From the NCBI GenBank assembly GCA_017546805.1, contig JAFYRT010000063.1, positions 10,289 to 74,288 of the forward strand: DNA of 64,000 nucleotides, in the 5' to 3' direction. The position numbers were made by a program, and so were the translations under genes. The stretch comes from Muribaculaceae bacterium. GTDB taxonomy: Bacteria; Bacteroidota; Bacteroidia; Bacteroidales; G3-4614. Below, piece after piece: positions 439-56,237 of this stretch (the stretch's first letter is position 1; each line of letters starts with the position of its first letter). The notes under the pieces were generated by a model that was not told the DNA's origin, searched no databases, and saw only the letters and a list, made by a program, of their open reading frames with translations.

Positions 439-516
439 ATAATCAACCGCAAATTGCGCACAAGTGAGAAAATATAGTTAATTTCGCATACTGAAAACAA
501 AAGAGATTCTTTAGAC

Positions 517-969: not shown

Positions 970-1293
970 ATGACAATAGAAGAGGCTCAAAAAATCGTAG
1001 ATAGTTGGATAAAGAGCTATGGCAAACGCTATTTCAACGAACTTACCAACATGGCTATTCTCACAGAAGAGGTTGGCGAAGTCGCAAGGGTAATGGCGCG
1101 TACATATGGAGAACAATCATTTAAAGATAGCGATAAAAAGGCGGAACTTGCCGACGAACTCGCCGATGTTTTATGGGTTTTGATATGCATAGCAAACCAA
1201 ACAGGAGTTGATTTAACCGAAGCTCTAAAAAAGAACATCAAAAAAAAGACAGAGAGAGATAAAACACGACATATAAACAATCCAAAATTATAA
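970..1293 (+). CDS. Small MazG-like nucleotide pyrophosphohydrolase
   Basis: 107 aa. It has the EEVGEVAR and ELADELADVLW motifs (EExxE/ExxD helices of the MazG fold). Its start abuts the dtd stop. Confidence 0.75.
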   Translation: MTIEEAQKIVDSWIKSYGKRYFNELTNMAILTEEVGEVARVMARTYGEQSFKDSDKKAELADELADVLWVLICIANQTGVDLTEALKKNIKKKTERDKTRHINNPKL

Positions 1294-1298
1294 TTAAC

Positions 1299-2162: not shown

Positions 2163-2178
2163 TAGAACAGAGTAACAA

Positions 2179-2221
2179 TAAAAAAATGAAGAGAACCTTC
2201 ACAGTTCTCTTCATTTTTTTA
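2179..2221. terminator. Bidirectional rho-independent terminator between convergent deoC and the polyprenyl synthase gene
   Basis: An 11-bp perfect stem ATGAAGAGAAC (2186-2196) / GTTCTCTTCAT (2204-2214) with a 7-nt loop. It is flanked by an A-run upstream and a T-run downstream. Confidence 0.7.
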
Positions 2222-2230
2222 TGATTATTA

Positions 2231-3205: not shown

Positions 3206-3298
3206 TGCCTTTATAATATTGAGTACAAAAATAGTAATAATAGAACAGAAAATCGCTATCTTTATATTAAATTTACGCAATAATTTTATCAATCAACT

Positions 3299-6085: not shown

Positions 6086-6086
6086 A

Positions 6087-6192
6087 GTTTTTAGTTTTTA
6101 GTTGTTAGTTGTTAGTTTTTAGATAATTAGATATTTCTAATTCCTAATTGTGACGAAGTCACGAACTAATTCCTAATTTCTAATTCCTAATT
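6087..6192. repeat. Heptanucleotide repeat block with a central hairpin in the polA / 6191(-) convergent gap
   Basis: GTTTTTA/GTTGTTA occurs 5 times (6087-6121) and TYCTAAT twice (6135-6148). The palindrome GTGACgaaGTCAC lies at 6150-6162, and CTAATTY occurs 4 times (6166-6192). The last unit abuts the stop of the minus-strand gene. Confidence 0.75.
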
Positions 6193-7804
6193 AAAAATAA
6201 GCAATCCTAACCATAAAATAACTATCCTCTTTAATAGGGTAAGCATCAAATAAATCGGAGATACTCATAAGGTTGCCACACTCACTATCGGCAACCTTTT
6301 TTACACTCCCCTCCTCCACTTTGAACGTGGCATTGTTGGGAAGTAAAACAGAATCTTTTACCGTTACACAGAAAGCAGTCTCAGGGTTCAATCTCGCATA
6401 CTCTTTAAGATATTCTTCAGCATTTATAATCCTATATTGAGGAGTATTTAATTCATCCTCTCCACGTCCAAAATCATACGCATAATCATTCAATAAAGAG
6501 ATAGGAGAAGAAGAAACTTTTGAGAACCCTTGACTCATGTACCACTCAGCAACAGACGAACTTCCGGGAATCAACATACATAGGTTTGCACTGTTACGAT
6601 AAAGACACTCGAAAATATCCTTCATCAATGCCTTACCATACCCCCTGCCCCTGTAATCCACCTTTGTTGCAACTCCATAGATATACGAGCATTTTCCACA
6701 GCCACCAACAAAATTAAACATGTCGGCAGTAGCAACAATGGCATCCCTATCGCGCAATATATAACTCTTACCCAAAGGACGTATTTTGGTTATATATTGC
6801 TCTATTGTCTCCTCATCATCGTCAAATGCCTCACGCCATAACATGGCAATTTCAACAGCCTCGGTAGAGCGTTTTATCTCCTCAACCTTCTCCTCATTTC
6901 CAAGTATCTCAATAAGACTGAATTTGGGATACAACATAATTGGCTGATACGATAATTTGGCATCACGCAAGCCTTGAATACCCAAATCCTCTTCGCGATT
7001 TATATAGCAATACTGCTCCGACAAAGCATTTGCAAAAAGATTATTTATCATTGCAAAACTTCTTTCGTAACGTACACTCCCCTTCTCTATATGGATACAA
7101 AAAGTGTTGTTGTTTATTGCCGACCCATATGTAAATGCAGCCAAGTCTCCATCAACATAAAGAGCCAAACCCTGCAATCCTAAAGCCTCAAAATTATCCA
7201 TTCCGCACTCTATTGCTCGTCTTTCGCACTCATACGCTTCCAAATCGGCATTTTCCTTGCCCTCTCGCCACTCTTCCACAAGTTTAAGTACTTCTTCCTT
7301 ATGAGCAGAAGAAAGTGGCTCTGTGGTGAAATTATAGAGTTTCTTAAAGGTGTTGACGTGATTACGTTTGGGTTGCAATTTCTTGCCGGCTAAAGTCCTT
7401 AATTGGTCGGCATTGTAGATATAATCAAACTGACTGCGTTTAGGATATAGATAATACCCGCAAAAGGGTATAGATGTGCGTAATTTCTCAGCAAAATTAG
7501 CCGAAACACCAGCCATTTTAAAAGGCTCGTTACTTGCACAAACATACTCCACAAGCTTTTTAAAAGCGGCAATGGAGTCACCCTCTCCAATAGGCTCCAT
7601 ATAAGTATGTTGTTTACCATCCACACCTCCAAACCGTATAAAGATAAAGCTTCCCCACTTCGCTATTTCGGGATTGTGCAGATGAGCCCAACAAAAGACA
7701 TTGGCAAATGCCATATCGCAACTACCCTCTCCCATTGCATAAGAATATTGTTCAAATAACTCTCTATCTTCAATTTTAACAGGTGTAAATTCCAACATAA
7801 TCAA
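6191..7804 (-). CDS. DUF2156-like (MprF C-terminal/FemX-like fold) domain fused to a GNAT acetyltransferase domain
   Basis: 537 aa. The N-terminal half resembles DUF2156 proteins (FANVFCW...KRNHVNTFKK). The C-terminal half has a GNAT acetyl-CoA motif (YRGRGYGKALM). The family assignment is from memory, not a search. Confidence 0.6.
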   Translation of the reverse strand: MIMLEFTPVKIEDRELFEQYSYAMGEGSCDMAFANVFCWAHLHNPEIAKWGSFIFIRFGGVDGKQHTYMEPIGEGDSIAAFKKLVEYVCASNEPFKMAGVSANFAEKLRTSIPFCGYYLYPKRSQFDYIYNADQLRTLAGKKLQPKRNHVNTFKKLYNFTTEPLSSAHKEEVLKLVEEWREGKENADLEAYECERRAIECGMDNFEALGLQGLALYVDGDLAAFTYGSAINNNTFCIHIEKGSVRYERSFAMINNLFANALSEQYCYINREEDLGIQGLRDAKLSYQPIMLYPKFSLIEILGNEEKVEEIKRSTEAVEIAMLWREAFDDDEETIEQYITKIRPLGKSYILRDRDAIVATADMFNFVGGCGKCSYIYGVATKVDYRGRGYGKALMKDIFECLYRNSANLCMLIPGSSSVAEWYMSQGFSKVSSSPISLLNDYAYDFGRGEDELNTPQYRIINAEEYLKEYARLNPETAFCVTVKDSVLLPNNATFKVEEGSVKKVADSECGNLMSISDLFDAYPIKEDSYFMVRIAYF

Positions 7805-7855
7805 TCTATTTTTTGTCTTGGTAAAAGTACAAAAAAAGCATAAAACTCCCCTCCT

Positions 7856-9154
7856 CTAATCGGGCATATTTTTACCAACGGTGATATATGCCTCCGAAAG
7901 ATAATGATAGCCCGAAGCATTCTGAAAAACACGCAATCCAAACATCTTAGATGCAGAGAAAAGATGCTCCGTTATCTCGCTACGCACAGCCTCATAACCC
8001 TTCCAATCGGTAACAAGAGAGAAACAGTACGTCTGAATAGGAATCCCATTCTCGCAAGGCTCCAAAAGACGCACCATTGAGAGCATATTTTTATTTACCG
8101 TAGAAAGAGAGTTTATATAGAGTTGCGAGTACGCTCTAAAGAGTCCCAAATTTGTATCTATAGTTCCCGAAATGCCACTTTCGCCAACCACAGAGAGTCT
8201 TCCCTCCTCTGCTCCCTGAGTCCGTTTTTTAGCAATATAATCAGAAAGAAGTTCAACCCTCTCCCACCCCTTCAGCTCCTCATCAGATAAGGTTATAATA
8301 CTTCCCACCTCAATTACAAAAGTCACTAATATTCTTCTTCCACCACTCTCCTGCATAGCCCTCCAATTTTGCAGAGTAGACGATATCAAAAGATAAGGCG
8401 GAACGGTAAGAATTGTATTGTCATAATTACGAACCTTCACGGTATTCAAAGTAATATCCTCAACAATACCGTTAACCTTTTCATCCGAAGTTGTAATCCA
8501 ATCTCCCTTACGAACAACATCATTTTGCATAAGTTGCACTCCTGCCACCAAACCCAATATAGTATCTTTGAAAATCAACATCAGAACAGCGGCAAAAGCC
8601 CCTAATCCCGTAATAAGATTCATTGGAGATTTGTCAATTACAATAGAGACAACAACAATCAAAGCCAATATGATAACAACTCCCTTAATTAACTGCAAAA
8701 GTCCATGCAAAGGGATGTTTCTACTTTTCTCCCCCTCGCTGATAATATGCCATATAACACCCATGAGATAATTCAAATAGAGAGCAGATGAGAGGATAAG
8801 ATATATCCAACAAATTCGCTCAGTAATTGATATAAATTTAGGATAGTCGTTATAAGCCAATGGCAAAAACGGAAGCATAAAAACAGGAGGAAAAACATAG
8901 AGTAATCTCGAAAATGCTTCGTGCTTAATCAAAAGCCTTATTACCCTACCCTTTAGTTGCTTAAATATACGAGGGAAAACGTACCTGATTACTATATGCA
9001 GAATCCAAGAAAGAAGAATGGAGATAAGCAACAAAAGAAGAACAAACACCCAGCATTCAACACGCTCGGCTACATTGGCAGAGATACCAATCTTCTCAAA
9101 AAAAGCCTTAAGGAAAGATACAAAAATGTGAAAAAACGATAGTTTCTCCTCCAT
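7856..9154 (-). CDS. Mechanosensitive ion channel (MscS family)
   Basis: 432 aa with an N-terminal TM helix bundle. It has the MscS beta-domain signature (VRKGDWITTSDEKVNGIVEDITLNTVKVRNYDNTILTVPPYLL). Confidence 0.85.
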   Translation of the reverse strand: MEEKLSFFHIFVSFLKAFFEKIGISANVAERVECWVFVLLLLLISILLSWILHIVIRYVFPRIFKQLKGRVIRLLIKHEAFSRLLYVFPPVFMLPFLPLAYNDYPKFISITERICWIYLILSSALYLNYLMGVIWHIISEGEKSRNIPLHGLLQLIKGVVIILALIVVVSIVIDKSPMNLITGLGAFAAVLMLIFKDTILGLVAGVQLMQNDVVRKGDWITTSDEKVNGIVEDITLNTVKVRNYDNTILTVPPYLLISSTLQNWRAMQESGGRRILVTFVIEVGSIITLSDEELKGWERVELLSDYIAKKRTQGAEEGRLSVVGESGISGTIDTNLGLFRAYSQLYINSLSTVNKNMLSMVRLLEPCENGIPIQTYCFSLVTDWKGYEAVRSEITEHLFSASKMFGLRVFQNASGYHYLSEAYITVGKNMPD

Positions 9155-9231
9155 TACATCCCATTTAAAGAGTCATTATTTAAGGATATAACAAATGAGA
9201 GTAATGAAAAGTTCAAAGGAAAATAAAATTT

Positions 9232-9420
9232 TTACCAAAATTTATTATTCTCGGAGCTATACTCAAAACCTACCGATTCAAGTTTATCTTCTAACCACTT
9301 ACGCTCAATGCCTAAAGTAGCACAAAGTTCGTCAAGCGAAGAGAACTCATCACGCAACTTCATGTTTATAAAACTAAACAATATCATAGGATCTGAAGGA
9401 ATGGTCTGCATAGCAATCAA
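9232..9420 (-). CDS. DUF4250 domain protein
   Basis: 62 aa (PMILFSFINMKLRDEF...LDELC). It matches my recollection of the small DUF4250 family. Confidence 0.65.
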   Translation of the reverse strand: MIAMQTIPSDPMILFSFINMKLRDEFSSLDELCATLGIERKWLEDKLESVGFEYSSENNKFW

Positions 9421-9445
9421 TTTTTAAATCAAAACAGCTTTATAT

Positions 9446-9483
9446 TAAAAAAGATAGGCTGTCCGAAAGAATCAGACAGCCTT
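9446..9483 (-). terminator. Rho-independent terminator downstream of the ferredoxin gene
   Basis: Stem AGGCTGTC (9456-9463) / GACAGCCT (9475-9482). On the minus strand it is followed by a T-run (complement of AAAAAA at 9447-9452). Confidence 0.6.
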
Positions 9484-11230: not shown

Positions 11231-12328
11231 ATGATTCTCGAAACCATTTCGTTACTAAATTTTAAAAACATAGCCGAAGCCGATATAACCTTTTCGGAGA
11301 ACATAAATTGCTTCTTGGGGAACAACGGTATGGGAAAAACCAACCTGTTGGATGCAATATACTATCTATCATTCTGTAAAAGTTTCTACAACATATCCGA
11401 CTCACAAAACATAAAACACGGAGAGGAGTTTTTCATGATAAAGGGCAATTACCTTAATTCCAAAACCGGCGATATGTCAGAGATAAACTGCGGAGTAAAA
11501 ATGAAGCAAAAAAAGAGCTTCAAACGCGATAAAAAAGAGTACGACAAACTATCTGAACACATAGGATACATCCCGTTGGTAATAGTATCGCCAGAAGATA
11601 GCGAATTGGTAAAAGAGGGTAGCGATATACGTCGAAAATTCATCGATCAAACCCTATCTCAATTCAACAAGGAGTATCTTTCGGCAATAATAGCCTACAA
11701 CAAGGCTCTCACCACCAGAAACGTAATGCTACGACGTGGCGATAAAGAGATAGCTCTATACGAAGTAATTGAGGGGCAAATGGAGTACTCTGCAAACTAT
11801 ATATACAAATGCAGAAAAGAGTTTATAGATAACTTTGTAGTCGTCTTTAACGACTTTTATCAACAAATAAGCGGAGGAGGGGAGAACGTAACACTTTCGT
11901 ACTCATCACACTTAAACGACGGAGCATTGGCCGACCAACTTGCCGAGAGCAGAGAAAAGGATAAGATATTGGGATACACAACACGAGGTATACACCGCGA
12001 TGATTTGGATATGAAACTTGGCGACCACAACATAAAAAGAGTAGGCTCTCAAGGACAAACCAAAACATTTGCCATAGCCCTACGTTTTGCCCAATACGAA
12101 TATCTGAAAAAAATGGGAGGAAAGAGCCCAATCCTTCTATTGGACGACATATTCGACAAGCTCGACTCAAACCGAGTTGAACGAATAATGAACATGGTTT
12201 CAACTCCCGATTTCGGACAGATATTTGTAACAGATACCAACCGAGAATACCTCGATGCAATAGTTCGCAAAAGCGACAAAAAATTCAAACTCTTTGGAGT
12301 AGAAGAGGGCGTAATAAGAGAGATATAG
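11231..12328 (+). CDS. recF: DNA replication and repair protein RecF
   Basis: 365 aa. It has a Walker A motif (GNNGMGKTNLLDA), an SMC-type signature (GSQGQTKTFAIALR) and Walker B (LLLDDIFDKLD). Confidence 0.93.
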   Translation: MILETISLLNFKNIAEADITFSENINCFLGNNGMGKTNLLDAIYYLSFCKSFYNISDSQNIKHGEEFFMIKGNYLNSKTGDMSEINCGVKMKQKKSFKRDKKEYDKLSEHIGYIPLVIVSPEDSELVKEGSDIRRKFIDQTLSQFNKEYLSAIIAYNKALTTRNVMLRRGDKEIALYEVIEGQMEYSANYIYKCRKEFIDNFVVVFNDFYQQISGGGENVTLSYSSHLNDGALADQLAESREKDKILGYTTRGIHRDDLDMKLGDHNIKRVGSQGQTKTFAIALRFAQYEYLKKMGGKSPILLLDDIFDKLDSNRVERIMNMVSTPDFGQIFVTDTNREYLDAIVRKSDKKFKLFGVEEGVIREI

Positions 12329-16115: not shown

Positions 16116-16376
16116 CAATTTTTATCTCTTTATAGAAAAAATTAGCAAATTTTTTATTCAAAAAGATTGAAATCTTACTAATTGAAAGTAAAAAGAGATG
16201 TCTGTTTTTTGCAAAAAAAGAATTCAAATTCAACATCAAAAAAATCAAAAAACAGATACTCTTGCAACAATAAAAATTGTTGATAAATTTAGTTCTTCTT
16301 GTGTGGTTTTAATAGATTATTTTAACTATCTTTATCCCCTAATTTAGGATAACTATATTTTATTGAGTGCGAGATT

Positions 16377-39432: not shown

Positions 39433-39448
39433 TTTTTTTGAAAAAAGA

Positions 39449-39479
39449 TTTGCAGTATTAAAAAAAAGTAGTATCTTTG
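39449..39479 (+). promoter_or_regulatory. Bacteroidota sigma-A-type promoter for tRNA-Gln
   Basis: TTTG (39449-39452), then a 19-nt spacer, then TATCTTTG (39472-39479). This is about 43 nt upstream of the tRNA. Confidence 0.55.
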
Positions 39480-39521
39480 CACCCGTTACGCAAGGTTAAA
39501 GTCCTGCGAACGAATAAGGAT

Positions 39522-39592
39522 TGTCTTATGGTGTAATGGTAGCACTGCAGTTTTTGGTTCTGCCTGTCTAGGTTCGAGTCCTGGTAAGACAA
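39522..39592 (+). tRNA. tRNA-Gln (anticodon UUG)
   Basis: Hand-folded cloverleaf: acceptor TGTCTTA/TAAGACA, D-arm GTGT-AATGGTA-GCAC, anticodon arm GCAGT-TTTTGGT-TCTGC (anticodon TTG), T-arm CTAGG-TTCGAGT-CCTGG. CCA is not encoded. Confidence 0.85.
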
Positions 39593-39595
39593 CAG

Positions 39596-39623
39596 AAAGG
39601 TCGCTAATCAGCGACCTTTTTTT
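39596..39623 (+). terminator. Rho-independent terminator after tRNA-Gln
   Basis: A 9-bp stem AAAGGTCGC/GCGACCTTT with a 6-nt loop, running into a T-run (to 39623). Confidence 0.75.
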
Positions 39624-39740
39624 ATTTCAAAAACTTCTCAATAAGAAATTCATAAATCTCTTATTAGGCTAATTGGTTCTATTCGACCAATTGGTTTAAT
39701 TTGTTTTTACCCAACACTATTTCCACAAACCGTATAAAAA

Positions 39741-39772
39741 CAAAAAAGAGACGCTTTCACAAGTGTCTCTTT
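39741..39772 (-). terminator. Rho-independent terminator after the tRNA-Asn pair
   Basis: Stem AAAGAGAC.../...GTCTCTTT (39745-39772). On the minus strand it is followed by TTTTTG. Confidence 0.65.
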
Positions 39773-39776
39773 CTTG

Positions 39777-39850
39777 CTCTTCAGGTTGGACTTGAACCAA
39801 CGACCCTCTGATTAACAGTCAGATGCTCTAACCGACTGAGCTACTGAAGA
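39777..39850 (-). tRNA. tRNA-Asn (anticodon GUU), copy 1
   Basis: The minus strand reads TCTTCAGTAGCTCAGTCGGTTAGAGCATCTGACTGTTAATCAGAGGGTCGTTGGTTCAAGTCCAACCTGAAGAG. It folds as a canonical cloverleaf with anticodon loop CTGTTAA. Confidence 0.92.
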
Positions 39851-39879
39851 ATAATATTTTATAGGTAGTTATGAAAAGG

Positions 39880-39953
39880 CTCTTCAGGTTGGACTTGAAC
39901 CAACGACCCTCTGATTAACAGTCAGATGCTCTAACCGACTGAGCTACTGAAGA
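39880..39953 (-). tRNA. tRNA-Asn (anticodon GUU), copy 2
   Basis: A 74-nt sequence identical to copy 1, separated from it by a 29-nt spacer. Confidence 0.92.
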
Positions 39954-39984
39954 AGATTTTGCACTCCTCTCTCGAAATGCAGTG

Positions 39985-39992
39985 CAAAAGTA
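39985..39992 (-). promoter_or_regulatory. -7 promoter motif for the tRNA-Asn pair
   Basis: The minus strand reads TACTTTTG, about 32 nt upstream of tRNA-Asn copy 2. Confidence 0.4.
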
Positions 39993-40149
39993 AGTCCATT
40001 TTTCCAATTATGCAACTTATCTGCCATTTTTTTTAAAGAAAAGAGATAAATAGAGGTAAAAAAAGGCTATTTTGCAACATTCTTAATCATTTTTATGTTG
40101 CAGATAAGCCAAAAGATAACTACCTTCGCATATATAAACACACACAAAC

Positions 40150-47169: not shown

Positions 47170-47220
47170 AAATATAGGGTTCACTTCAACTTCAATTGGG
47201 TCACCCTATATTTATATTGT
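47170..47220 (+). terminator. Hairpin terminator after the U32 gene
   Basis: An 11-bp stem AAATATAGGGT (47170-47180) / ACCCTATATTT (47203-47213) followed by T-rich sequence. Confidence 0.5.
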
Positions 47221-47232
47221 ATGAGTATTGAA

Positions 47233-47267
47233 TAAAAAGAGCTATTTTAAGGCTTGCTAAGCCTTAT
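47233..47267 (-). terminator. Hairpin terminator after the kinase gene
   Basis: Stem TAAGGCTT (47248-47255) / AAGCCTTA (47259-47266). On the minus strand a T-rich tail follows. Confidence 0.5.
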
Positions 47268-47304
47268 ATCGAAAACAACGCAGTAGTTTATTAACTATAA
47301 CAAC

Positions 47305-48444
47305 CTACTTATTCATATTCCTCATTATCCTATCAGTAACATCATTAATCCAACGCATATTGTAGTTATCCATAATATACATCGAAATCTGTTTGTAAAT
47401 ATCGCTGCGTTCAATATTTTTAACCTCAACAGGCAAATTTTTTACGTCGGTTTTAAGAGTATCCAACAATTTGTCTGTTATAGAAACAACCAAAGCAACA
47501 TCATTAAAAGAGAGAACAAGATTCTCATAGTCATTAGCCTTTATAATAGAATCTGCTTTTAATTTCAGAGCGCTAACAATTGAAGAAACAATTTTATCCT
47601 GCTCCTCTCTCTTAATAACACTCTGCTCAACAACCTCAACCTTGGGTAAAATATTTTGGCGACTGCTCTCAATATTGACAAAGTACGAAATCATAAAAGC
47701 AAAGGCAATAAAGATTGTGATGAAAAAATATTTCGGAACTCTCCAACACAAATTAAGCTTTTGTTTAACCGCATCAATAGTCCTATATCTATCTTGTTTG
47801 TTACAACAACATCCGCTAATCACAAAACGAGCCAAGACCCCTGTTTTCAAATCTTTAAGCAAGCAACCCACCGAAAAAATATCGTCGGGACCTTCAGGAG
47901 CCACATACCCTTCCGAGCCCACAGCCTGTTTAAGCACAGCGTAACCATTGCTATCGCTCAAGCCAAAATCAATAAGTTTAATATACGCACCACCCTGTAC
48001 CACCATAATGTTTTGCGGTTTAAGATCGCGATGCTGAATTTGAAGCGAATGAAGATATTTAAGCGTATCAATAAGCATGTTTGCAATATTTCTGCGTTCG
48101 CTGATTGAGTGTTTCTGTTCAAGCCATTCGCTGAGAGTAACACCCTCAATCCACTCCATAACAATAGCCTTTCCAATACCCTTAACATCCTCGATGGAAT
48201 ATACCTGAACAATGTACGGATGTTGTAAACTTGTCATCAAATCAAACTCTTTCATCAAGAGCGATTGGTACATAACATCCCCTTGCAGCTCCTTTTTCAA
48301 AGCCTTCAAAAGCCACCATTTGCCATTGCGCTTTGCTCTATAAAGAGAGTTAAAACCGGAGTTGCTAATCTCCAAGACCTGAGAAAACTCTTGTTGAGAC
48401 AAAAAATTATCTTTAGGTTTTATAAAAAATGATGTATCAGACAT
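47305..48444 (-). CDS. Membrane-anchored Hanks-type Ser/Thr protein kinase
   Basis: 379 aa. It has the catalytic loop HRDLKPQN, DFG (IDFGLS), APE-like YVAPEG, and the lysine context WWLLKALK. A TM helix (FFITIFIAFAFMISYFV) precedes a roughly 115-aa C-terminal domain. The glycine-rich loop is degenerate (ISNSGFNSLY). Confidence 0.85.
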   Translation of the reverse strand: MSDTSFFIKPKDNFLSQQEFSQVLEISNSGFNSLYRAKRNGKWWLLKALKKELQGDVMYQSLLMKEFDLMTSLQHPYIVQVYSIEDVKGIGKAIVMEWIEGVTLSEWLEQKHSISERRNIANMLIDTLKYLHSLQIQHRDLKPQNIMVVQGGAYIKLIDFGLSDSNGYAVLKQAVGSEGYVAPEGPDDIFSVGCLLKDLKTGVLARFVISGCCCNKQDRYRTIDAVKQKLNLCWRVPKYFFITIFIAFAFMISYFVNIESSRQNILPKVEVVEQSVIKREEQDKIVSSIVSALKLKADSIIKANDYENLVLSFNDVALVVSITDKLLDTLKTDVKNLPVEVKNIERSDIYKQISMYIMDNYNMRWINDVTDRIMRNMNK

Positions 48445-48475
48445 CGTAAAATCAAATTATTTTAACCAAACAAAA

Positions 48476-49036
48476 CTATCCAATTAAAACCCTGATGCAA
48501 ACACCATCTTTTTCACCTGCAACATAAGATAAAGGCTCCGAACCCTCATGAACAAGATTACTCAAATATAATGGTTCGTTTTGTATAAACAAGTTACAAG
48601 TAAACGAATCGCCTACACTCAATTTAGAGTTCACACTCTCGGTTATAACAAAAGCAGAGTCCCCAACATATTTAGCAACAATAGTTCGGTCGGGACGCCA
48701 CGAAATTTGCAAACAATCACCTTTAATAAGTCTATTAACATCAATAGAATCGGTCGAAACAATACGACTTTGCACTTTTTTCAACTCCTCACGTCTTTGA
48801 CAAAATACCTCAAAGTTTCTAAAGCCCACAAACTTTGCAAGCACATCAAGCGTATGAGGTCTGGTTTCGACCTTCTCATTTTGCAGATAACCCCAAAACC
48901 TCTTTAATGTAGTAGGAGATAGTCGCTCTTTGGTTTTATCCCAAATAACATTGCTTAACTCCTCAAAATTACCTGCAGTAAGCACCTTAAAGCCTGCTGT
49001 ATATTCAACCGTTTGTCTTAAAATATCGTGTAGCAT
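48476..49036 (-). CDS. Hypothetical protein co-transcribed with the kinase (possible HTH-like N-terminus, beta-rich C-terminus)
   Basis: 186 aa, 31 nt upstream of the kinase on the same strand. Its codon usage matches neighbouring minus-strand genes. The N-terminus (SPTTLKRFWGY...HTLDVLAKFVGF) looks helix-turn-helix-like. I recognise no family. Confidence 0.5.
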   Translation of the reverse strand: MLHDILRQTVEYTAGFKVLTAGNFEELSNVIWDKTKERLSPTTLKRFWGYLQNEKVETRPHTLDVLAKFVGFRNFEVFCQRREELKKVQSRIVSTDSIDVNRLIKGDCLQISWRPDRTIVAKYVGDSAFVITESVNSKLSVGDSFTCNLFIQNEPLYLSNLVHEGSEPLSYVAGEKDGVCIRVLIG

Positions 49037-49100
49037 CTTTTTTAATTAGAAATGTTTTTTAACTAAGAACTAACAATCCCAAGCTAAAGCAATACAATGA

Positions 49101-49108
49101 CAAATTTA
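49101..49108 (-). promoter_or_regulatory. Candidate -7 promoter motif for the 48476/kinase operon
   Basis: The minus strand reads TAAATTTG, about 65 nt upstream of the 49036 start. Confidence 0.35.
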
Positions 49109-49160
49109 TAACAAATTTTTTAACAAGTTATATTCAACTATTAAAAGGACAAAAAAGGAC

Positions 49161-49191
49161 TTTGTTTTCTTTTTACATCACCCTACTTTTG
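49161..49191 (+). promoter_or_regulatory. Full Bacteroidota-type promoter facing the 49625/50315 operon
   Basis: TTTG (49161-49164), then a 19-nt spacer, then TACTTTTG (49184-49191). It lies upstream of the left inverted repeat. Confidence 0.55.
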
Positions 49192-49220
49192 CCTTTGCAA
49201 GAGAGAGAGATTTTTAAAAT

Positions 49221-49484
49221 ATTGGTTCACACTATTAAGGGGAAAGTTATATATACATTTTTATATAACAAAATACTTTATTTATAAAAAATATTTATAA
49301 ATTTGTGGTGTTGCACAATTGCAACAGACATATTTAGGAAACATTAGACAAAGTCTGTTAAGGTAAACCTGGAAAATTTATCAAAGCAAGTAAAGACTGA
49401 GTTTAAACATGTTCCCTTGATACTGTGTATAAAACCTGCTTACGATGGTTAGGCAGGATTATATACATTCAAGTGTGAACCAAT
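49221..49484. repeat. Perfect 13-bp inverted repeat pair bracketing a 238-bp segment
   Basis: ATTGGTTCACACT at 49221-49233 and its exact reverse complement AGTGTGAACCAAT at 49472-49484. The enclosed segment contains TAAATTTG (49298-49305, + orientation). Confidence 0.85.
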
Positions 49485-49624
49485 TTATACTCTTTACTTG
49501 CGGGCAGTTCCAGGGCCTACCAACGGAGTATTAAATTAGGTTTGCACTTTTTTTGTGCCCTTCTCCGAAAAACTCCTTTGCTGTATCCTTAAAAATGGGA
49601 AATAACCACTAAAACAATATAATT

Positions 49625-50278
49625 ATGAAATGTTTAATACCTATAATTTTAAAGCATTATCCAAAAGACTTTTTAAAATACTATTTTGAAGATTTAAAAA
49701 AGGCATATAATGCTAAGGATACAACTTCTACTCTATTATTACTTACAGAAATAACAAAAGGAGATCACCAAAGGAGAATGCCTATTCATATTGTTAAAAT
49801 TGTAATATACAAATTATTAGAAGAGGCAATTTTTAATGGAATATTTAAAAACTTCGAAGAACTATATGATAGAGTAAAAGATATATTATCCACTATCCCT
49901 TTTGCACAAGGACCACTAACCACATACGATATAGCATTAAAGATTGGAGGCTTATTAAATATATCTCCTCATGACTATTTATATCTTGCAGATACAACAA
50001 GTAAAGTTTTTTCGCTTGTGTATTCAAATACTAATCCAACTACTAAAAACTTCAAAGGAAAAGTGGATATATCTTATGCACAAAAGATATTCGGTAATAC
50101 ATTAAATAGTGCAGATATAGAGATTATATTATGCATATTTAAAGACTGTTTTAAAAGACGTTTAGACGGAGAATGTATTTCAGAAGAAGAAATAAAAGAT
50201 ATCATAAAGAAGAAATATCCTAAAGAGATAGATTGGGATAATGTAAGGACGAAAGCAAAAAGATATGGAGTTTTATAA
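49625..50278 (+). CDS. Hypothetical protein (217 aa), first gene of the adhesin operon
   Basis: The ORF is open with no recognisable family and no signal peptide. It ends 36 nt before the 50315 start on the same strand. Confidence 0.5.
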   Translation: MKCLIPIILKHYPKDFLKYYFEDLKKAYNAKDTTSTLLLLTEITKGDHQRRMPIHIVKIVIYKLLEEAIFNGIFKNFEELYDRVKDILSTIPFAQGPLTTYDIALKIGGLLNISPHDYLYLADTTSKVFSLVYSNTNPTTKNFKGKVDISYAQKIFGNTLNSADIEIILCIFKDCFKRRLDGECISEEEIKDIIKKKYPKEIDWDNVRTKAKRYGVL

Positions 50279-50314
50279 AGAAAATGATAAATAATTCTAA
50301 AAAAATAAGAGATC

Positions 50315-53300
50315 ATGAAAACTAAATTAATTACATTGCTCGTGGCAATACTTTCTGTGGGTATATTATATGCCCAAAGTGATATGGATGGTATAAAACT
50401 CAATGATATACCAACATACACCATAAAAACATCTTCATCAACAGGCGGAACTGCTACAACTTCATTAAACGAGGTTGTAACAGGAGGTAGTGTAACCCTT
50501 AATGCATATGCAAACAGCGGATACGGTTTTAAAAATTGGACTGTTAATGGCACAGTTGTAAGTGCATACAATCCCTATACCGTTACACCAACCGGTAATA
50601 CAACATACAAAGCCAATTTTGTACCAATAAAATCTGGTTTATATATGGGAATAATGGGCTTTAATAAAGAGTTGAATAATAAAAATATAGGAATACTCAC
50701 ATCCGATACAAAATCATCATTCACCAACTTTGTAAATAATTTAACTACTCAAAAAGGAACAATATTGTATTATGCAGTTGAAAATGCCATAGATTCATTG
50801 GCAACAGCAACTCTTCCGGGAGATTTAGAAAGTGTTATAATGATAACATTTACCGACGGATTAGACCAAGGTTCATTTATGATGAATAACAAATATGAAT
50901 CAATCGATGAGTATTTGACTGTATTAAATAATAAGATAAAAAACACCAAAGTACAAAGATTACCTATAAACGCATACTCTATAGGGTTGAAAGGTTCAGA
51001 TGTAGTGGATGACGTTCAATTTCAGAACAACCTTACAAATTTGGCAAGTTCTCCTGAAAATGCTATAGAGGTAAGTAGCATGGATGAGGTAAACACTAAA
51101 TTACAAGAGATAGCAACAGCAATATACCAGGAAAAAAATGGCGAAACAATAAAACTTACCATTCCGGGTCAATCGCCAAATACAAAAATACGTTTTACTT
51201 TTGATAATGTAACAGATGCCTCAAAATCACAATTCTATATAGAGGGAACATTCTCTAATGACTATTCATTGAAAAATGTGGTTTATTCAGGAATGACCTC
51301 AAAAAGTGGACTAATTGTAGCAGGAGAGACAGACGGATTTGAAGTAACATACACATTTAAGGATATTGAAGTAACTAATGTATTATATGACAGACTTCCC
51401 ACATCTAATCTAAAACAGTGGAGCTATGTGACAAGTTCATCTAAATGGCAAAAGAATTCGGAGTTTTCTCCCGAAGAATCATCAATCATTGAAATAAGAC
51501 CAACAGTAATAATGTTGGTGTTAGACTGTAGTAGTTCATTAGGCAGTCAATTTACAACAATGAAGACTTACGCTAATAACTTTATTAAAAAGATAGAAGA
51601 GGGACCTAAATACTACACTGTATCAGCATCAGCAAATACAGGTGGAACTGCTGTTGCTTCATCTGAAAACGTAAGAGAGGGAGGAAATGTAAGACTGACT
51701 GCCATACCTAATGATGGATATAAATTTAAAAACTGGACAAAAAACGGTAGCGTGGTAAGTACTTCTAACCCCGACACAGTCACCATAACTGCAAACAGCA
51801 CATTTGTAGCTAATTTCGAAATAGCTCCAACCTATACAGTAAAAGTTTCTGCAAATACAGGTGGAACTGCTGTTGCTTCATCTGAAAATATGTGGGAAGG
51901 AGGCAGTGTAATCCTAACTGCAACACCAAAAAGTGGATATAAATTTAAAAACTGGACAAAAAACGGTAGCGTGGTAAGTACTTCTAACCCTTACACCGCT
52001 ACAATAACTGAATACAGCATATTTGTAGCTAATTTCGAAATAATTCCAACCTATACAGTATCAGTTTCTGCAAATACAGGTGGAACTGCTGTTGCTTCAT
52101 CAAACAGTGTAGAGTATGGTGGTAGTGTAACTCTAACAGCTACTCCAAACAGTGGATACAAATTTAAAAATTGGACAAAAAACGGTAGCGTGGTAAGTAC
52201 TTCTAACCCATATACTGCAACTATATCGGCAAACAGTTCTTTTATAGCGAACTTTGAGAAAATTACCTATACAGTATCAGTTTCTGCAAATACAGGTGGA
52301 ACTGCAACAGCATCTGCAAGCAGTGTTGAAAAGGAAGGAGCCGGGGTAACTCTAACTGCAACACCTGATAGTGGATATAAATTCAAAAACTGGACATTGA
52401 ACGGTAATGTGGTAAGTACTAATAAGCGTTACTATGCAACTATAACTGCAAACAGCCACTTTGTTGCCAATTTCGAAAAACTTACCTATGAAGTAATAGT
52501 TTATACAAATACAGGTGGAACTGCAACAGCATCTGCAAACATTGTAGAGTATGGTGGTAGTGTAACCCTAACTGCAACACCTGAACCTGATAGTAAATAT
52601 GTATTCATAAATTGGAAGACATCATGGTTCGGTGATGACTTTGTAAGTACTTCTAACCCTTACACTGCTACCATAACTGAAAACAGCACATTTATAGCTA
52701 ATTTTCAAATACCTACCTATACAGTATCAGTTTCTGCAAATACAGGTGGAACTGCAACAGCATCTGCAAGCAGTGTTGAAAATAAAGACAATGTAATCCT
52801 AACTGCAATACCTGATAGTGGATATAAATTTAAAAATTGGACATTGAACGGTAATGTGGTAAGTACTAATTGGTGTTACTATGCAACTATAACTGCAAAC
52901 AGCAACTTTGTTGCCAATTTTTATAAATCAACAGATATAGACGTACACGAATATGTAGACCTTGGCTTATCAGTGAAATGGGCAGATTGTAATGTAGGAG
53001 CAACCTCTCCTGTAGGGTACGGTGATTATTTCTCATGGGGAGAGACTTCTCCAAAAGAAATATATAATTGGGACTCATCATATAAATGGGATGATTCTAA
53101 TTATTATTCAAACGAAAATAATAAAACAATACTTGATTTAGAAGACGATGCAGCGTATGTAAATTGGGGTGGTAATTGGCGTATGCCAACAATAGAAGAA
53201 TTTCAAGAACTAATTGATAATTGTACTTGGACAGAGAGTACCCATAGCGGAGTAAACGGAGTAATAGTAACCAGTAAAATAAATGGGAACTCTATCTTTC

Positions 53301-53710
53301 TTCCTAAAGCAGGTTATAGAAGTGGTCCTGATTATGTTAATAAAGGTTCAAGATGTTGCTATTGGTCTTCTTCTCGTTATGTTGAAAATAATTATGATGG
53401 TCACATTTTGTGGATTTCGATAAAAAGCCCTAGTATGTTTTCTATGCTTCGTTATCAAGGATTAACTATCCGCGCAGTTTATGATATAAATAATACAGCT
53501 ATTGAGGAGATTGATACAAATAGTGCATTTGTATATGCTGGCAATGGTGTTATATATATAAATAATCACATAGGAAATGTCAAGGTAATTGGCGTTTCAG
53601 GTCAAGTAGTTAAAGATGTTTATATAGACGGAAACGACACACTTGAAGTTACTCCGGGTCTTTACATCGTAAAAACAGGAAACAAAGTAACAAAAATTGT
53701 GGTTAAGTGA
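50315..53710 (+). CDS. T9SS-secreted mosaic surface protein: InlB-type B-repeat, vWA-like region, 6 further B-repeats, DUF1566/Fib_succ_major lectin-like domain, T9SS C-terminal sorting domain
   Basis: It has a signal peptide (LLVAILSVGILYAQ) and 7 repeats carrying the GYKFKNWT motif. vWA-like strands are present (VIMITFTDGLDQGS, INAYSIGLKG) plus a separate DCSSS MIDAS-like motif. The lectin-like region reads GNWRMPTIEEFQEL...GYRSG...CYWSSS...GLTIRAVYD. The C-terminus GLYIVKTGNKVTKIVVK is typical of a type A T9SS CTD. Confidence 0.85.
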   Translation: MKTKLITLLVAILSVGILYAQSDMDGIKLNDIPTYTIKTSSSTGGTATTSLNEVVTGGSVTLNAYANSGYGFKNWTVNGTVVSAYNPYTVTPTGNTTYKANFVPIKSGLYMGIMGFNKELNNKNIGILTSDTKSSFTNFVNNLTTQKGTILYYAVENAIDSLATATLPGDLESVIMITFTDGLDQGSFMMNNKYESIDEYLTVLNNKIKNTKVQRLPINAYSIGLKGSDVVDDVQFQNNLTNLASSPENAIEVSSMDEVNTKLQEIATAIYQEKNGETIKLTIPGQSPNTKIRFTFDNVTDASKSQFYIEGTFSNDYSLKNVVYSGMTSKSGLIVAGETDGFEVTYTFKDIEVTNVLYDRLPTSNLKQWSYVTSSSKWQKNSEFSPEESSIIEIRPTVIMLVLDCSSSLGSQFTTMKTYANNFIKKIEEGPKYYTVSASANTGGTAVASSENVREGGNVRLTAIPNDGYKFKNWTKNGSVVSTSNPDTVTITANSTFVANFEIAPTYTVKVSANTGGTAVASSENMWEGGSVILTATPKSGYKFKNWTKNGSVVSTSNPYTATITEYSIFVANFEIIPTYTVSVSANTGGTAVASSNSVEYGGSVTLTATPNSGYKFKNWTKNGSVVSTSNPYTATISANSSFIANFEKITYTVSVSANTGGTATASASSVEKEGAGVTLTATPDSGYKFKNWTLNGNVVSTNKRYYATITANSHFVANFEKLTYEVIVYTNTGGTATASANIVEYGGSVTLTATPEPDSKYVFINWKTSWFGDDFVSTSNPYTATITENSTFIANFQIPTYTVSVSANTGGTATASASSVENKDNVILTAIPDSGYKFKNWTLNGNVVSTNWCYYATITANSNFVANFYKSTDIDVHEYVDLGLSVKWADCNVGATSPVGYGDYFSWGETSPKEIYNWDSSYKWDDSNYYSNENNKTILDLEDDAAYVNWGGNWRMPTIEEFQELIDNCTWTESTHSGVNGVIVTSKINGNSIFLPKAGYRSGPDYVNKGSRCCYWSSSRYVENNYDGHILWISIKSPSMFSMLRYQGLTIRAVYDINNTAIEEIDTNSAFVYAGNGVIYINNHIGNVKVIGVSGQVVKDVYIDGNDTLEVTPGLYIVKTGNKVTKIVVK
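51611..52929 (+). repeat. Six tandem coding repeats of about 220 nt (InlB-type B-repeat units) with long near-identical DNA stretches
   Basis: Strings such as GTTTCTGCAAATACAGGTGGAACTGC and AAAAACTGGACAAAAAACGGTAGCGTGGTAAGTACTTCTAACCC recur at about 225-nt spacing. Confidence 0.9.
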
Positions 53711-53821
53711 TAATAAACAAGTTAGATGACTTTGTTATCAAAGTTTTAGTTAAATAATAAACACAATACTTTTTAACTAAATCATAAAATAGGACAGATT
53801 AATAATAATTCTTGTTGGTAA

Positions 53822-53866
53822 AGGGGCTGTGTCAAAATGTAAAATTTGGCACAGTCTCTTTTTTTA
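53822..53866 (+). terminator. Rho-independent terminator of the adhesin gene (hairpin-family member)
   Basis: AGGGGCTGTGTCAAAAT (53822-53838), a GTAA loop, and AATTTGGCACAGTCTCT (53843-53859) form a 17-position stem (1 mismatch, 3 G-U pairs), followed by TTTTTTT. Confidence 0.75.
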
Positions 53867-53933
53867 GGAGAATGTAAATTAAACTGTGTCAGCAAGGAAA
53901 AATAAATATTAACTTTGCTAACACAGTTTTATT

Positions 53934-54050
53934 ATGAGCGAATTTGATTTTGAAAGCATCAAGGTTAAAGCCCTTGAACAATTAAAAGCTGGCAAATCAT
54001 TATTGGGTAAAGATGAAAAGTTATATTATCTTTCTACTGTAATTTTTTAA
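53934..54050 (+). pseudogene. IS256-family (mutator-type) transposase, N-terminal stub only
   Basis: It translates to MSEFDFESIKVKALEQLKAGKSLLGKD then EKLYYLSTVIF*. The first 27 aa match the conserved N-terminus of Bacteroidota IS256-family transposases as I recall it (..ALEQL+SGK.LLGKDG). Similarity ends where the sequence runs into the 3' end of the convergent 54034 gene. Confidence 0.6.
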
Positions 54051-54561
54051 AGAACTCCCATATAACAATACCTCCGGCAACAGATACATTCAAAGAGTGT
54101 TTAGTTCCAAACTGAGGTATTTCAACTGCAAAATCGCAGATGTTCACTACCTCTTGTTGAACTCCTTTTACCTCATTTCCCAATATAAGCGCATAACGAC
54201 TGTTTTTATCAAGTTCAACTTTATCGAGCATTATACTGTTTTGCACCTGTTCAACTGCAAACACTTTATAGCCTTCGTTTTTAAGTTTTTCAACAACCTG
54301 TTTTGTATCTTCATAATATTCCCAATCCATACTATCCTCGGCACCAAGTGCAGTTTTGTGTATCTCAGCATTGGGAGGTGTGGCTGTTACTCCACATAAA
54401 TATATTTTTTCAAGTTTAAAAGCATCAGAACTACGGAAAACCGAACCAACATTATTTAAACTTCTTATATTATCAAGTACCACAACCAAAGGAGTTTTAT
54501 CAAGTTGTTTAAACTCCTCTTTACTAACTCGTTCTAACTCTACTACTGATAATTTTTTCAT
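54034..54561 (-). CDS. TrmH/SpoU-family RNA 2'-O-methyltransferase
   Basis: 175 aa. It has NVGSVFRSSDAF, LILGNEVKGV and IPQFGTKHSLNVSVAGGIV (SPOUT motifs). Confidence 0.85.
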   Translation of the reverse strand: MKKLSVVELERVSKEEFKQLDKTPLVVVLDNIRSLNNVGSVFRSSDAFKLEKIYLCGVTATPPNAEIHKTALGAEDSMDWEYYEDTKQVVEKLKNEGYKVFAVEQVQNSIMLDKVELDKNSRYALILGNEVKGVQQEVVNICDFAVEIPQFGTKHSLNVSVAGGIVIWEFFKKLQ

Positions 54562-54605
54562 ATCTTTATTTTTAATATCTTACTTTATTTATTTGCTGGC
54601 GAATT

Positions 54606-54701
54606 TACACTTTTTCAAGGGAATAATTTAATATAGCTACACTTTTTCGAATGAATAATTCAATATTATTACACTTTATTAAGGGAATAGAAGTATCTTC
54701 T
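54606..54701. repeat. Three phased 32-bp direct repeats
   Basis: TACACTTTTTCAAGGGAATAATTTAATATAGC (54606-54637), TACACTTTTTCGAATGAATAATTCAATATTAT (54638-54669), TACACTTTATTAAGGGAATAGAAGTATCTTCT (54670-54701). Confidence 0.75.
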
Positions 54702-54781
54702 ATATTTATATCTTCTTTAAAATTAAAGAGATAGAAATAATAAATCATTCCTAATTAACAAACATATGTTTGTTGTTTTTA

Positions 54782-54825
54782 CTCTCGCTCGGTAGTGCTC
54801 AAATAAATTTGGCACTTCTCTCGCT
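54782..54825. repeat. Small hairpin (family member) flanked by an 8-bp direct repeat
   Basis: CTCTCGCT (54782-54789), then 28 bp containing the hairpin AGTGCTCAAA-TAAA-TTTGGCACT (54794-54816), then CTCTCGCT (54818-54825). Confidence 0.7.
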
Positions 54826-54837
54826 AAATCTCAAAAT

Positions 54838-54866
54838 TTCTAATTTCTAATTCCTCATTCCTAATT
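54838..54866. repeat. Heptanucleotide repeat TYCTAAT x4 (same family as 6135-6192)
   Basis: TTCTAAT TTCTAAT TCCTCAT TCCTAAT T. Confidence 0.7.
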
Positions 54867-55301
54867 ATTAATAACCTGTTGATAAGTTGTTAATAGCGTA
54901 TAATAACTTTTCAAAAAATTATGTTGCATTTTTCAAATATCAATTTGTATAATCAAATATTCAAATATGTGCTGTTATTATCAAATTTCTTTTCTTTTTA
55001 TTTATTCACATCATATTTAATGGTTATCAATACTAAAAATAAAAAATTTAATTAACTTTGTACTTTATCAACATAGTGTTAATAAAGTATATATTCTATT
55101 TATAATCAATTATTAATGCTGTTGATTACTCTGTTTATTTTGTTAATTGATTATTAATAACCAATTTTCCAAATAAATAGCAAAAAAGATATCAAATGTA
55201 TTAACAATATATTATCATCATCATTTTTTTTCTATTTAAAAAAGAATATATATTTATTTGTTTGTGGAAAAAGGTGGATGAATAAAACTAAATTTCATTT
55301 T

Positions 55302-56237
55302 ATGAATATAGTAGAGGAAATTAAAAAATTAAAAGAGGAGAAGAATGCAGTAATATTGGCTCACTACTACCAACGCGACGAAATTCAAGAAGTGGCAGAT
55401 TTTGTTGGTGACAGTTTGGCTCTTGCTCAATGGGCTGCTAAAACAGATGCTGATATTTTAGTTGTATGTGGTGTTAATTTTATGGGTGAAACAGCTAAAA
55501 TATTGTGTCCCGATAAAAAAGTTCTTATTCCGGATAATACAGCAGGTTGTTCTTTGGCCGATAGTTGTAAAGCTGATGACTTGGCTGAATTCATAAAACA
55601 ATATCCCGGATATAAAGTTGTTTCATATGTTAATACTACTGCCGAGGTTAAGGCTTTGACCGATGTTGTGGTTACAAGCTCTAATGCAAAAGAGATTGTT
55701 GAATCGTTCCCAAAAGATGAAAAGATTATATTTGGTCCTGACAGAAATTTAGGTAGCTATATAAATTCTGTTACAGGTAGAGAGATGGTTGTTTGGGATG
55801 GTGCTTGTGATGTTCACGAACAATTTTCTCTTCAAAAAATAAAAGAGCTTAAAGAGCAAAATCCCGATGCCGAAGTGTTGGCTCACCCGGAGTGTAAAAA
55901 ACATATTCTTATTGTTGCCGATAAGGTTGGTTCAACAGCTGCTCTTTTGAATTATGCCATTAAATCGGATTGCAAAAAATTTATTGTTGCCACCGAATCT
56001 GGTATATTGTTTAAGATGAGACAATCTTGTCCCGATAAAGAGTTTATTCCTGCACCTCCCGAAGATTCAACTTGTGCTTGTAACGAGTGTGCTTTTATGA
56101 AATATAATACTCTCGAAAAATTATATGATGCTCTTAAAAACGAAAAACATGAGGTTTTTGTTGATGAAGAGATAAGAGAAAAGGCTGTTATATCTATACA
56201 ACGCATGTTGGATATATCTGAAAAATTAAAATTATAA
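55302..56237 (+). CDS. nadA: Quinolinate synthase
   Basis: It has NAVILAHYYQ, VCGVNFMGETAKIL, HPECK and TESGILFKM motifs. The start is placed at ATG 55302 (MNIVEEIKKLKEEKNA). An in-frame ATG at 55278 is the alternative. Confidence 0.93.
   Translation: MNIVEEIKKLKEEKNAVILAHYYQRDEIQEVADFVGDSLALAQWAAKTDADILVVCGVNFMGETAKILCPDKKVLIPDNTAGCSLADSCKADDLAEFIKQYPGYKVVSYVNTTAEVKALTDVVVTSSNAKEIVESFPKDEKIIFGPDRNLGSYINSVTGREMVVWDGACDVHEQFSLQKIKELKEQNPDAEVLAHPECKKHILIVADKVGSTAALLNYAIKSDCKKFIVATESGILFKMRQSCPDKEFIPAPPEDSTCACNECAFMKYNTLEKLYDALKNEKHEVFVDEEIREKAVISIQRMLDISEKLKL

Follow-up and report, generated by a model that had tools for sequence, protein, structure and literature searches.

The question raised by this locus is where chromosome replication begins in the genome it comes from, and whether the gap at positions 54562–55277 is that site. 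The gap lies in the window (the whole 64-kb stretch of contig JAFYRT010000063.1 that was analysed) between a SpoU methylase gene on the minus strand and nadA on the plus strand, and a sequence-only reading of the same DNA had put it forward as a candidate origin of chromosomal replication (oriC). That candidacy is supported by a flip in strand composition at third codon positions, by the conservation of both the locus and the switch, and by a core packed with DnaA boxes. We consider it highly probable that the gap is the oriC of this genome, homologous to an origin located between spoU and nadA across the Bacteroidales. It would represent an ordinary DnaA-type origin of a known sort, newly located in an uncultured species.

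The gap comprises 716 bp and is 79% AT, the highest AT content among all gaps of at least 200 bp in the window. Its left neighbour is a SpoU/TrmH-family RNA methyltransferase gene (54034–54561, minus strand; Pfam PF00588, SpoU_methylase, E = 5.7e-37), and its right neighbour is nadA, encoding quinolinate synthase (55278–56237, plus strand; Pfam PF02445, E = 4.9e-125). The description of a very AT-rich gap between a divergent trmH-like gene and nadA is thus borne out on both sides. The true start of nadA is probably the ATG at 55302, because the alignment with the sister species L005 and L006 is conserved only from there. That the gap is the longest non-coding stretch holds for gene-free DNA; the gap at 39433–40149 is one base longer (717 bp) but contains three tRNAs. 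The window matches metagenome contigs that have been assigned to Candidatus Caccoplasma sp. (Bacteroidaceae, Bacteroidales), and its nadA encodes a protein 99% identical to that of JAZLBW010000045.1. Identical copies of nadA are found on ENA and Logan contigs, and the junction of spoU, gap, and nadA recurs in several independent assemblies.

As a general rule, leading strands carry an excess of G over C and of T over A at third codon positions. Within the window, the plus-strand GC skew at third positions (GC3 skew) lies below zero in 41 of the 46 open reading frames (ORFs) to the left of the gap, irrespective of whether the genes lie on the plus or the minus strand, and ranges from +0.16 to +0.32 in every ORF to the right (Mann–Whitney p = 0.0012, left vs right). 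For the two immediate neighbours, the values are −0.26 (SpoU) and +0.17 (nadA). The corresponding AT skew (AT3 skew) is positive in 45 of 46 left ORFs and negative in all four right ORFs. The plus strand therefore changes from C/A-rich to G/T-rich, which under the leading-strand rule is the polarity of an origin. Starting from 0, the cumulative third-position G−C count declines steadily until it reaches −1136 at 54559, the last spoU codon and the edge of the gap, and rises afterwards. The sequence-only reading had judged by eye that both components flip exactly here. This proved correct for GC3, while the cumulative T−A count reaches its minimum at 51961, to the left of the gap and within a strain-variable island (see below). 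One refuting condition set by the earlier reading, a lack of GC3 sign change between 47–54 kb and 55–64 kb, did not hold, since the computed GC3 skew changes sign at the gap with origin polarity. A hand tally of alanine codons in ftsZ was likewise close, with 20 GCA and 8 GCT counted against an estimate of 19 and 8. It should be noted that the raw cumulative GC skew over all positions has its window minimum at 16268, away from the gap (sliding and cumulative analysis), because coding-strand composition, in the form of a purine excess, dominates the signal. As a plain skew plot of the window would miss the gap for this reason, third-position skew was used instead.

For comparative purposes, relatives were collected with a scan for the nadA protein, limited to one genome per species, which returned 80 loci, all from Bacteroidales; together with three contigs, this gave a set of 83 loci. 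The arrangement of SpoU on the minus strand, a gap of 434–716 bp, and nadA on the plus strand is found in 69 of the 83, across many genera. Skew was calculated with long ORFs as gene proxies for the 59 loci that have at least three ORFs on each side. In 58 of these, plus-strand GC3 skew is higher on the right than on the left, and in 51 the left mean is negative and the right mean positive. The mean skew amounts to −0.11 and −0.14 for plus- and minus-strand ORFs on the left and to +0.14 and +0.17 on the right, the sign being independent of gene strand. When the cumulative GC3 curve was followed over the 21 kb of each locus, 36 of 52 loci had their minimum no more than 1 kb from the gap, vs approximately 12% by chance. 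The flip is clear in single loci where each side has genes on either strand, as in Bacteroides nordii (L013), the chromosome of an uncultured Bacteroides (L020), and UBA3844 (L042). Moreover, skew flip and perfect or exact boxes upstream of nadA are kept in more distant loci where another gene takes the place of SpoU (L042, L050, L061, and L063). A switch that has come to equilibrium to either side of one syntenic point, and is conserved there across families, implies that the direction of replication differs across it.

The gap holds four one-mismatch matches to the DnaA box of E. coli (TTATCCACA), where 0.2 are expected from dinucleotide shuffles of the gap (none of 500 shuffles reach four). 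All four had been picked out in the earlier reading and lie at the coordinates it gave (54877–54885, 55002–55010, 55065–55073, and 55263–55271), and the further copy of TGTTGATAA that it had placed at 16278 is present as well. Ori-Finder asks for a cluster of at least three DnaA boxes with at most one mismatch to TTATCCACA; here, four such boxes are found, none of them perfect. A modified box is enriched as well, with 14 matches to TTATYAACA (at most one mismatch) in the conserved core of the gap vs 1.8 ± 1.3 in shuffles (0 of 500). When every 9-mer was scored without bias across 66 gaps, one-mismatch neighbours included, TTATTAACA/TGTTAATAA came out on top, with 333 sites, i.e. about five per gap and 12 times the flank rate. 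The exact motif TTATNNACA occurs 148 times, vs 17.9 expected at the flank rate. Its sixth position is A in 125 of the 148 sites and C in only 13, and its fifth position tolerates all four bases (C 69, T 44, A 22, and G 13). Judged from these counts, the relevant box consensus is TTATNAACA and not the E. coli-type TTATCCACA, so that the original box model stands as regards the presence of boxes and is revised as regards their consensus. The pattern suggests that the DnaA of Bacteroidales prefers A at box position 6. Boxes of the TTATNAACA type number approximately 9–14 in the core, in both orientations, and approximately nine per gap across the relatives, spread over 400 bp.

Sharing across the order is limited to the right-hand part of the gap, a conserved core of ~412 bp (54862–55274) with 82% AT. 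The core is 89–90% identical in the sister species L005–L007, where it abuts nadA, and its blocks are conserved in all 67 aligned gaps. Compared to L004, it is 99.3% identical (three substitutions), vs 91–96% for the flanking genes. From left to right, the core opens with a cluster of minus-strand boxes at 54865–54896, consisting of TTATTAATA, TGTTGATAA (54877–54885), and TGTTAATAG (54888–54896). The cluster is 100% conserved in L005/L006, and its GTTGAnAA and TGTnAA elements are conserved order-wide. It is followed by an AT-rich stretch (54903–54970) of repeated TTTTCAAA(A)AT and ATATTCAA words, which are conserved; the stretch includes an 8-bp tandem repeat at 54949–54968, detected by Tandem Repeats Finder (TRF), and coincides with a second minimum of duplex stability. 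Two plus-strand boxes, TTATTCACA (55002–55010) and TTATCAATA (55024–55032), both conserved in L005/L006, come next.

The centre of the core is formed by an invariant plus-strand motif, TAACTTTG (55053–55060), and an inverted pair of perfect boxes directly after it. TAnnTTTG is the −7 promoter consensus of Bacteroidetes; TAACTTTG matches it, points to nadA, and is the sole plus-strand TAnnTTTG in the core. The motif is present in 67 of 67 SpoU–nadA gaps, 190–258 bp (median 214) before the nadA start, and is absent from distant loci without SpoU, which retain the boxes. The inverted pair at 55065–55085 consists of TTATCAACA on the plus strand and TGTTAATAA on the minus strand, separated by tag, and is the best-conserved part of the core; in an alignment of 30 loci it takes the form TTATNAACA N3–4 TGTTAATA. 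Further to the right lie a minus-strand box TGTTGATTA (55120–55128; order-wide GTTNATAA, with the fifth box position free) and the conserved plus-strand sequence ATTATTAATAACC (55150–55162), which repeats 54864–54876 with 13 of 13 positions identical and has the order-wide form CTAATAACTT. The earlier observation of a pair of ATTATTAAT...CTGTTGATWA elements was also reproduced. The plus-strand box GTATTAACA (55198–55206; order-wide CTATTAACA) is the closest to the AT-rich stretch beside nadA, and the core ends with the minus-strand box TGTGGAAAA (= TTTTCCACA) at 55263–55271, which reads TGTTGAAAA in the sister species.

Between these last two boxes lies a candidate DNA-unwinding element (55207–55262), which contains ATT ATC ATC ATC ATT with a 3-nt period followed by T8 and A/T-only sequence. 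Within the gap, duplex stability is lowest over the 50 bp at 55207–55256 (90% AT), directly after the box at 55198–55206. When the stability profile was averaged over 67 loci, the minimum was found at +170 to +250 from the anchor, i.e. at the same place beside nadA, with a weaker minimum at −150 to −111, corresponding to ~54903–54942. As the minimum of the gap and that of the 67-locus average coincide, we propose 55207–55262 as the putative unwinding element, with 54903–54970 as an alternative candidate. Read with the strand and orientation geometry of the DnaA-trios in E. coli and B. subtilis, seven in-frame NAN triplets run from 55211 on the complementary strand, beginning 4 nt after the box at 55198–55206, though AT-rich DNA passes a NAN pattern easily. 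The triplets read 3'-TAG/TAA-5' and not 3'-GAT-5', and the box itself has three mismatches to TTATCCACA and one to TTATNAACA. The basal unwinding system (BUS) is recognised by at least three DnaA-trios (NAN) at most 16 bp from a DnaA box with at most two mismatches (PMC8287927); in the order-wide consensus, the run of at least three triplets is broken.

On the basis of this layout, and by analogy with origins that have been characterised, a sequence of events can be proposed. DnaA, which we infer to be the protein that recognises the boxes, would bind the approximately 9–14 TTATNAACA boxes in both orientations across the core at 54862–55274. It would then oligomerise from the box at 55198–55206 and open the adjoining AT-rich stretch at ~55207–55262 beside nadA, from which forks would depart both ways. 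The invariant TAACTTTG is tentatively attributed to a promoter, presumably that of nadA, firing through the boxes. A more far-reaching proposal, which we regard as speculative and rather unlikely to hold, is that the Bacteroidales share one ancient spoU–nadA origin module. In such a module, DnaA would read TTATNAACA, with C at position 6 changed to A, instead of TTATNCACA. Transcription from an invariant promoter, TAACTTTG, would cross the central box pair and then the unwinding element on its way to nadA, thereby physically coupling the opening of the origin with the expression of NAD biosynthesis. Individual lineages would add constrained accessory modules that tune initiation, here 300 bp with three 32-bp iterons.

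Several observations weigh against the assignment of the gap as oriC. Neither dnaA nor dnaN is found in the 54 kb that precede the gap or the 9 kb that follow it, and a six-frame regular expression for the DnaA signature motif gave no match in the window or in the 83 loci, each covered to ±10 kb. A Pfam scan of 20 ORFs of the window, including all 10 from 47.3–62.9 kb, returned no DnaA family either, so that the caveat in the earlier reading that no dnaA is nearby was borne out by both searches. An oriC distant from dnaA is described as common in Bacteroidetes by authors who consulted DoriC (PMC4755523); as this is reportedly normal for the phylum, we do not regard the absence as a problem. 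A recF-like gene (SMC_N/RecF, 365 aa) is located at 11231–12328, 43 kb from the origin, without adjoining dnaA, dnaN, or gyrB, which indicates that the classical dnaA–dnaN–recF cluster is dispersed here. Regarding the boxes, the gap contains no perfect E. coli-type box (TTATCCACA), and the gaps that yielded the TTATNAACA consensus are also those in which its copies were counted. The a priori test with the E. coli box is the cleaner statistic for that reason. Low duplex stability is not peculiar to the gap, as the window's least stable 50-mer lies at 49248, and the whole gap is AT-rich.

Other reservations concern the skew and the orientation of genes. Skew was computed over 64 kb only, so that the minimum at 54559 is that of the window, and the local cumulative minimum lies elsewhere in 16 of 52 relatives. 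In the sister species L005/L006, skew is close to 0 for the genes that precede SpoU. Of the 46 ORFs to the left of the gap in the window, 34 are on the plus strand and hence head-on to a leftward fork, and only 43% of the right-side ORFs in the relatives are co-oriented with the fork. Gene-strand bias to the left of the gap is weak or inverted. Gene orientation gives no support for an origin on these numbers, and it was dropped as an argument. Among the plus-strand ORFs on the left (1–54000) are the complete dcw cell-division cluster and several genes for tRNA synthetases. Lastly, the inverted pair of perfect boxes can also be read as the operator of a dimeric regulator.

This last point belongs to the alternative that survives best, although we judge it quite improbable. 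Here, the gap would be only the divergent promoter and operator region of spoU and nadA, with operators for a regulator of NAD metabolism (for example TTATCAACA-N3-TGTTAATAA) and no role in replication. Several features agree with such a function: TAACTTTG fits the −7 consensus, is invariant, and keeps a fixed distance from nadA; the best-conserved boxes are an inverted pair; and the core is still found beside nadA in loci with a different gene on the left. However, a regulatory region leaves the strand-independent skew switch in 58 of 59 loci unexplained, and it does not call for about nine boxes per gap in both orientations over 400 bp. Order-wide conservation over 400 bp far exceeds the needs of a promoter and an operator. 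The two functions are, moreover, compatible, since origins commonly contain promoters, and oriC accommodates the regulatory features of the gap as well.

Still less probable, in our estimation, is that the compositional switch marks the boundary of a rearrangement or horizontal transfer, or a chimeric metagenome assembly, in which the two sides have different histories. In favour of a boundary, the G+C content at third positions drops from ~0.38 to 0.17–0.32 from 49.6 kb onward, the segment at 47174–53904 is absent from L004 and thus constitutes a variable island, some contigs (L003, L021, and L008) end within the gap, and the skew in L005/L006 is near 0 to the left of SpoU. Against it, L004, which lacks the island, flips at the same gap (side totals −0.22 to +0.09, with all called left ORFs negative). 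The junction is furthermore found in independent assemblies, on which ground a chimeric assembly was rejected, and in 69 loci of many genera. Skew that has reached equilibrium to the left and to the right in many species means that the direction of replication really changes here.

The island and the sister-species loci are described here in their own right. The segment at 47174–53904 measures 6.7 kb, with ~434 bp in its place in the closely related L004, and carries a Ser/Thr kinase gene (47305–48444, minus strand), two ORFs of 186 and 217 aa, and the gene for a surface protein of 1131 aa that contains seven InlB B-repeat (Flg_new_2) domains. Between 49.6 and 53.7 kb, the G+C content at third positions is very low (0.17–0.23) and the AT3 skew is near 0. 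The segment is a strain-variable island, probably a recent acquisition, located directly beside the origin. In L005/L006, the genes to the left of SpoU (1–8860) combine a GC3 skew near 0 with an AT3 skew below zero. In L007, SpoU and the core are separated by two additional genes (8324–9478), one of them with a right-side-type skew of +0.35. These patterns are suggestive of recent rearrangement or insertion beside the origin. As to the contig ends, L003, L021, and L008 stop 88, 59, and 202 bp upstream of nadA, respectively, and the contigs of L012, L051, and L052 also end in the gap or within a few hundred bp of it. Assemblies may break preferentially at the origin via strain variation or uneven coverage.

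The remaining alternatives are barely credible. A replication terminus (dif region) also yields a sign change in skew, but it is ruled out by polarity, since it would need a plus strand that turns from G-rich to C-rich, the opposite of what is seen, and it is defined by a 28-bp dif site rather than by 400 bp of conserved, box-rich DNA. Just as remote is a structured leader RNA upstream of nadA, such as the NAD+ riboswitches that occur upstream of nadA in other phyla: approximately 230 nt are conserved from the promoter-like TAACTTTG up to the start of nadA, but the idea was rejected because RNAalifold returns 0 base pairs for 30 diverse loci and the gap has no Rfam match at E ≤ 1, and conservation reaches ~190 bp upstream of the putative promoter. 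At gathering thresholds, Rfam identifies only three tRNAs in the whole window and no family in the gap.

The left part of the gap differs from the origin core in its distribution. This species-specific module of 300 bp (54562–54861) with repeats, a palindrome, and a hairpin is found only in the same-species contigs L001, L002, and L004; in L005/L006 it is absent, and the SpoU start is located ~55 bp from the core. Compared to L004 (9299–9584), the module is 99.3% identical, with two substitutions and one 14-bp tandem-repeat indel, next to flanking genes of 91–96% identity, which points to a seemingly strong constraint. Three phased 32-bp direct repeats with the unit TACACTTTTTCAAGGGAATAATTYAATATARC occupy 54606–54701 on the plus strand (copies at 54605, 54637, and 54669, 81–100% identical; by TRF, period 32, 2.6 copies, and 76% matches). 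Folded as RNA, they do not stand out (z = 0.19 and −0.88), and none is conserved outside this species. The perfect 18-bp palindrome AACAAACATATGTTTGTT (54757–54774; self-inverted BLAST match 18/18) holds TAnnTTTG on both strands, as TATGTTTG at 54765 (plus) and 54759 (minus). Both the palindrome and a hairpin, GCUCGGUAGUGCUCAAAUAAAUUUGGCACUUCUCUCGC (54787–54825), fold better than shuffles (z down to −4.6, plus strand), and both are lineage-specific. At the boundary to the core, TRF reports a 7-bp tandem repeat, AATTCCT × 4.6 (54835–54866, plus strand), which accounts for the 14-bp indel relative to L004 and represents strain-level length variation adjoining the core. A search for further copies of the module in the window, as would be in line with an element resembling a miniature inverted-repeat transposable element, returned only short chance matches.

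The phased repeats, the palindrome, and a 13-bp direct repeat had been noticed in the sequence-only reading, and all of them are real. Their role as parts of the origin was not sustained: they were placed within the lineage-specific 300 bp, and because the repeats and the palindrome are confined to a module absent from the sister species, they are not part of the conserved origin. The module is a lineage-specific but apparently constrained add-on, which may serve as the spoU promoter region or provide sites for accessory proteins. Elsewhere in the window, the 717-bp gap contains two tandem tRNA genes on the minus strand (39777–39953) with equal Rfam scores, whose 76-bp blocks (39776–39851 and 39879–39954) cross-match at 100% via their counterparts in L004, and a third tRNA on the plus strand (39522–39592).

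The origin itself is ordinary, and no concept is changed by it. Its value would be practical, as a spoU–nadA gap with TTATNAACA boxes offers a landmark by which the origin of Bacteroidales metagenome-assembled genomes can be located from sequence. Such a landmark could be used in contig orientation, in coverage-based estimates of growth rate (peak-to-trough), and in oriC vectors for gut Bacteroides, and it could provide origin predictors with a lineage-specific box and indicator genes. We found no open-access paper that identifies spoU–nadA with the origin of Bacteroidales or describes TTATNAACA as the box used there; this search did not cover DoriC itself, where the locus may already be recorded genome by genome.

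Compared to known origins, the proposed oriC shows a mixture of shared and divergent traits. The relaxed DnaA box of E. coli, TTATNCACA, has a free fifth position, and the same position is free here. As in the oriC of E. coli between gidA and mioC, 9-mer boxes in both orientations lie beside an AT-rich unwinding element and away from dnaA, and the promoter of a flanking gene, here putative, reads towards or through the origin. Unlike in E. coli, box position 6 is A rather than C in 125 of 148 exact sites, no perfect TTATCCACA is present, and the core measures ~412 bp vs 245 bp. Enterobacterial origins of the Dam/SeqA type have at least eight GATC sites in oriC; the region 54500–55320 contains no GATC and hence offers no basis for Dam/SeqA-type control. 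In a layout that resembles the B. subtilis-type BUS (PMC8287927), a box is followed by a short spacer, NAN triplets, and then the least stable DNA, whereas the triplets are TAG/TAA and not GAT, the run is unconserved, and the origin does not flank dnaA.

Closer to the present lineage, among the Bacteroidetes oriCs predicted in DoriC/Ori-Finder, that on chromosome 1 of Prevotella intermedia OMA14 spans 476 bp (1,498,452–1,498,927) and is located far from dnaA (PMC4755523). Like the gap described here, it is intergenic, coincides with a clear GC-skew transition, and has multiple DnaA-box-like sites at a distance from dnaA (PMC4755523). The comparison with the OMA14 origin, at ~470–480 bp, covers these features. 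The indicator-gene table of Ori-Finder 2022 has nothing for Bacteroidota. At the level of keywords, its main text and the DoriC 10 paper make no mention of Bacteroidetes and give box motifs only for E. coli, cyanobacteria, and Thermotoga. A lineage-specific DnaA box, TTTTCCACA, has been described for cyanobacteria (PMC6323995, PMC10225481). There the changed position is the third, unlike the C to A change at position 6 that is proposed here from sequence. In both groups, the consensus is shifted at one position throughout the lineage, and the origin does not always lie beside dnaA.

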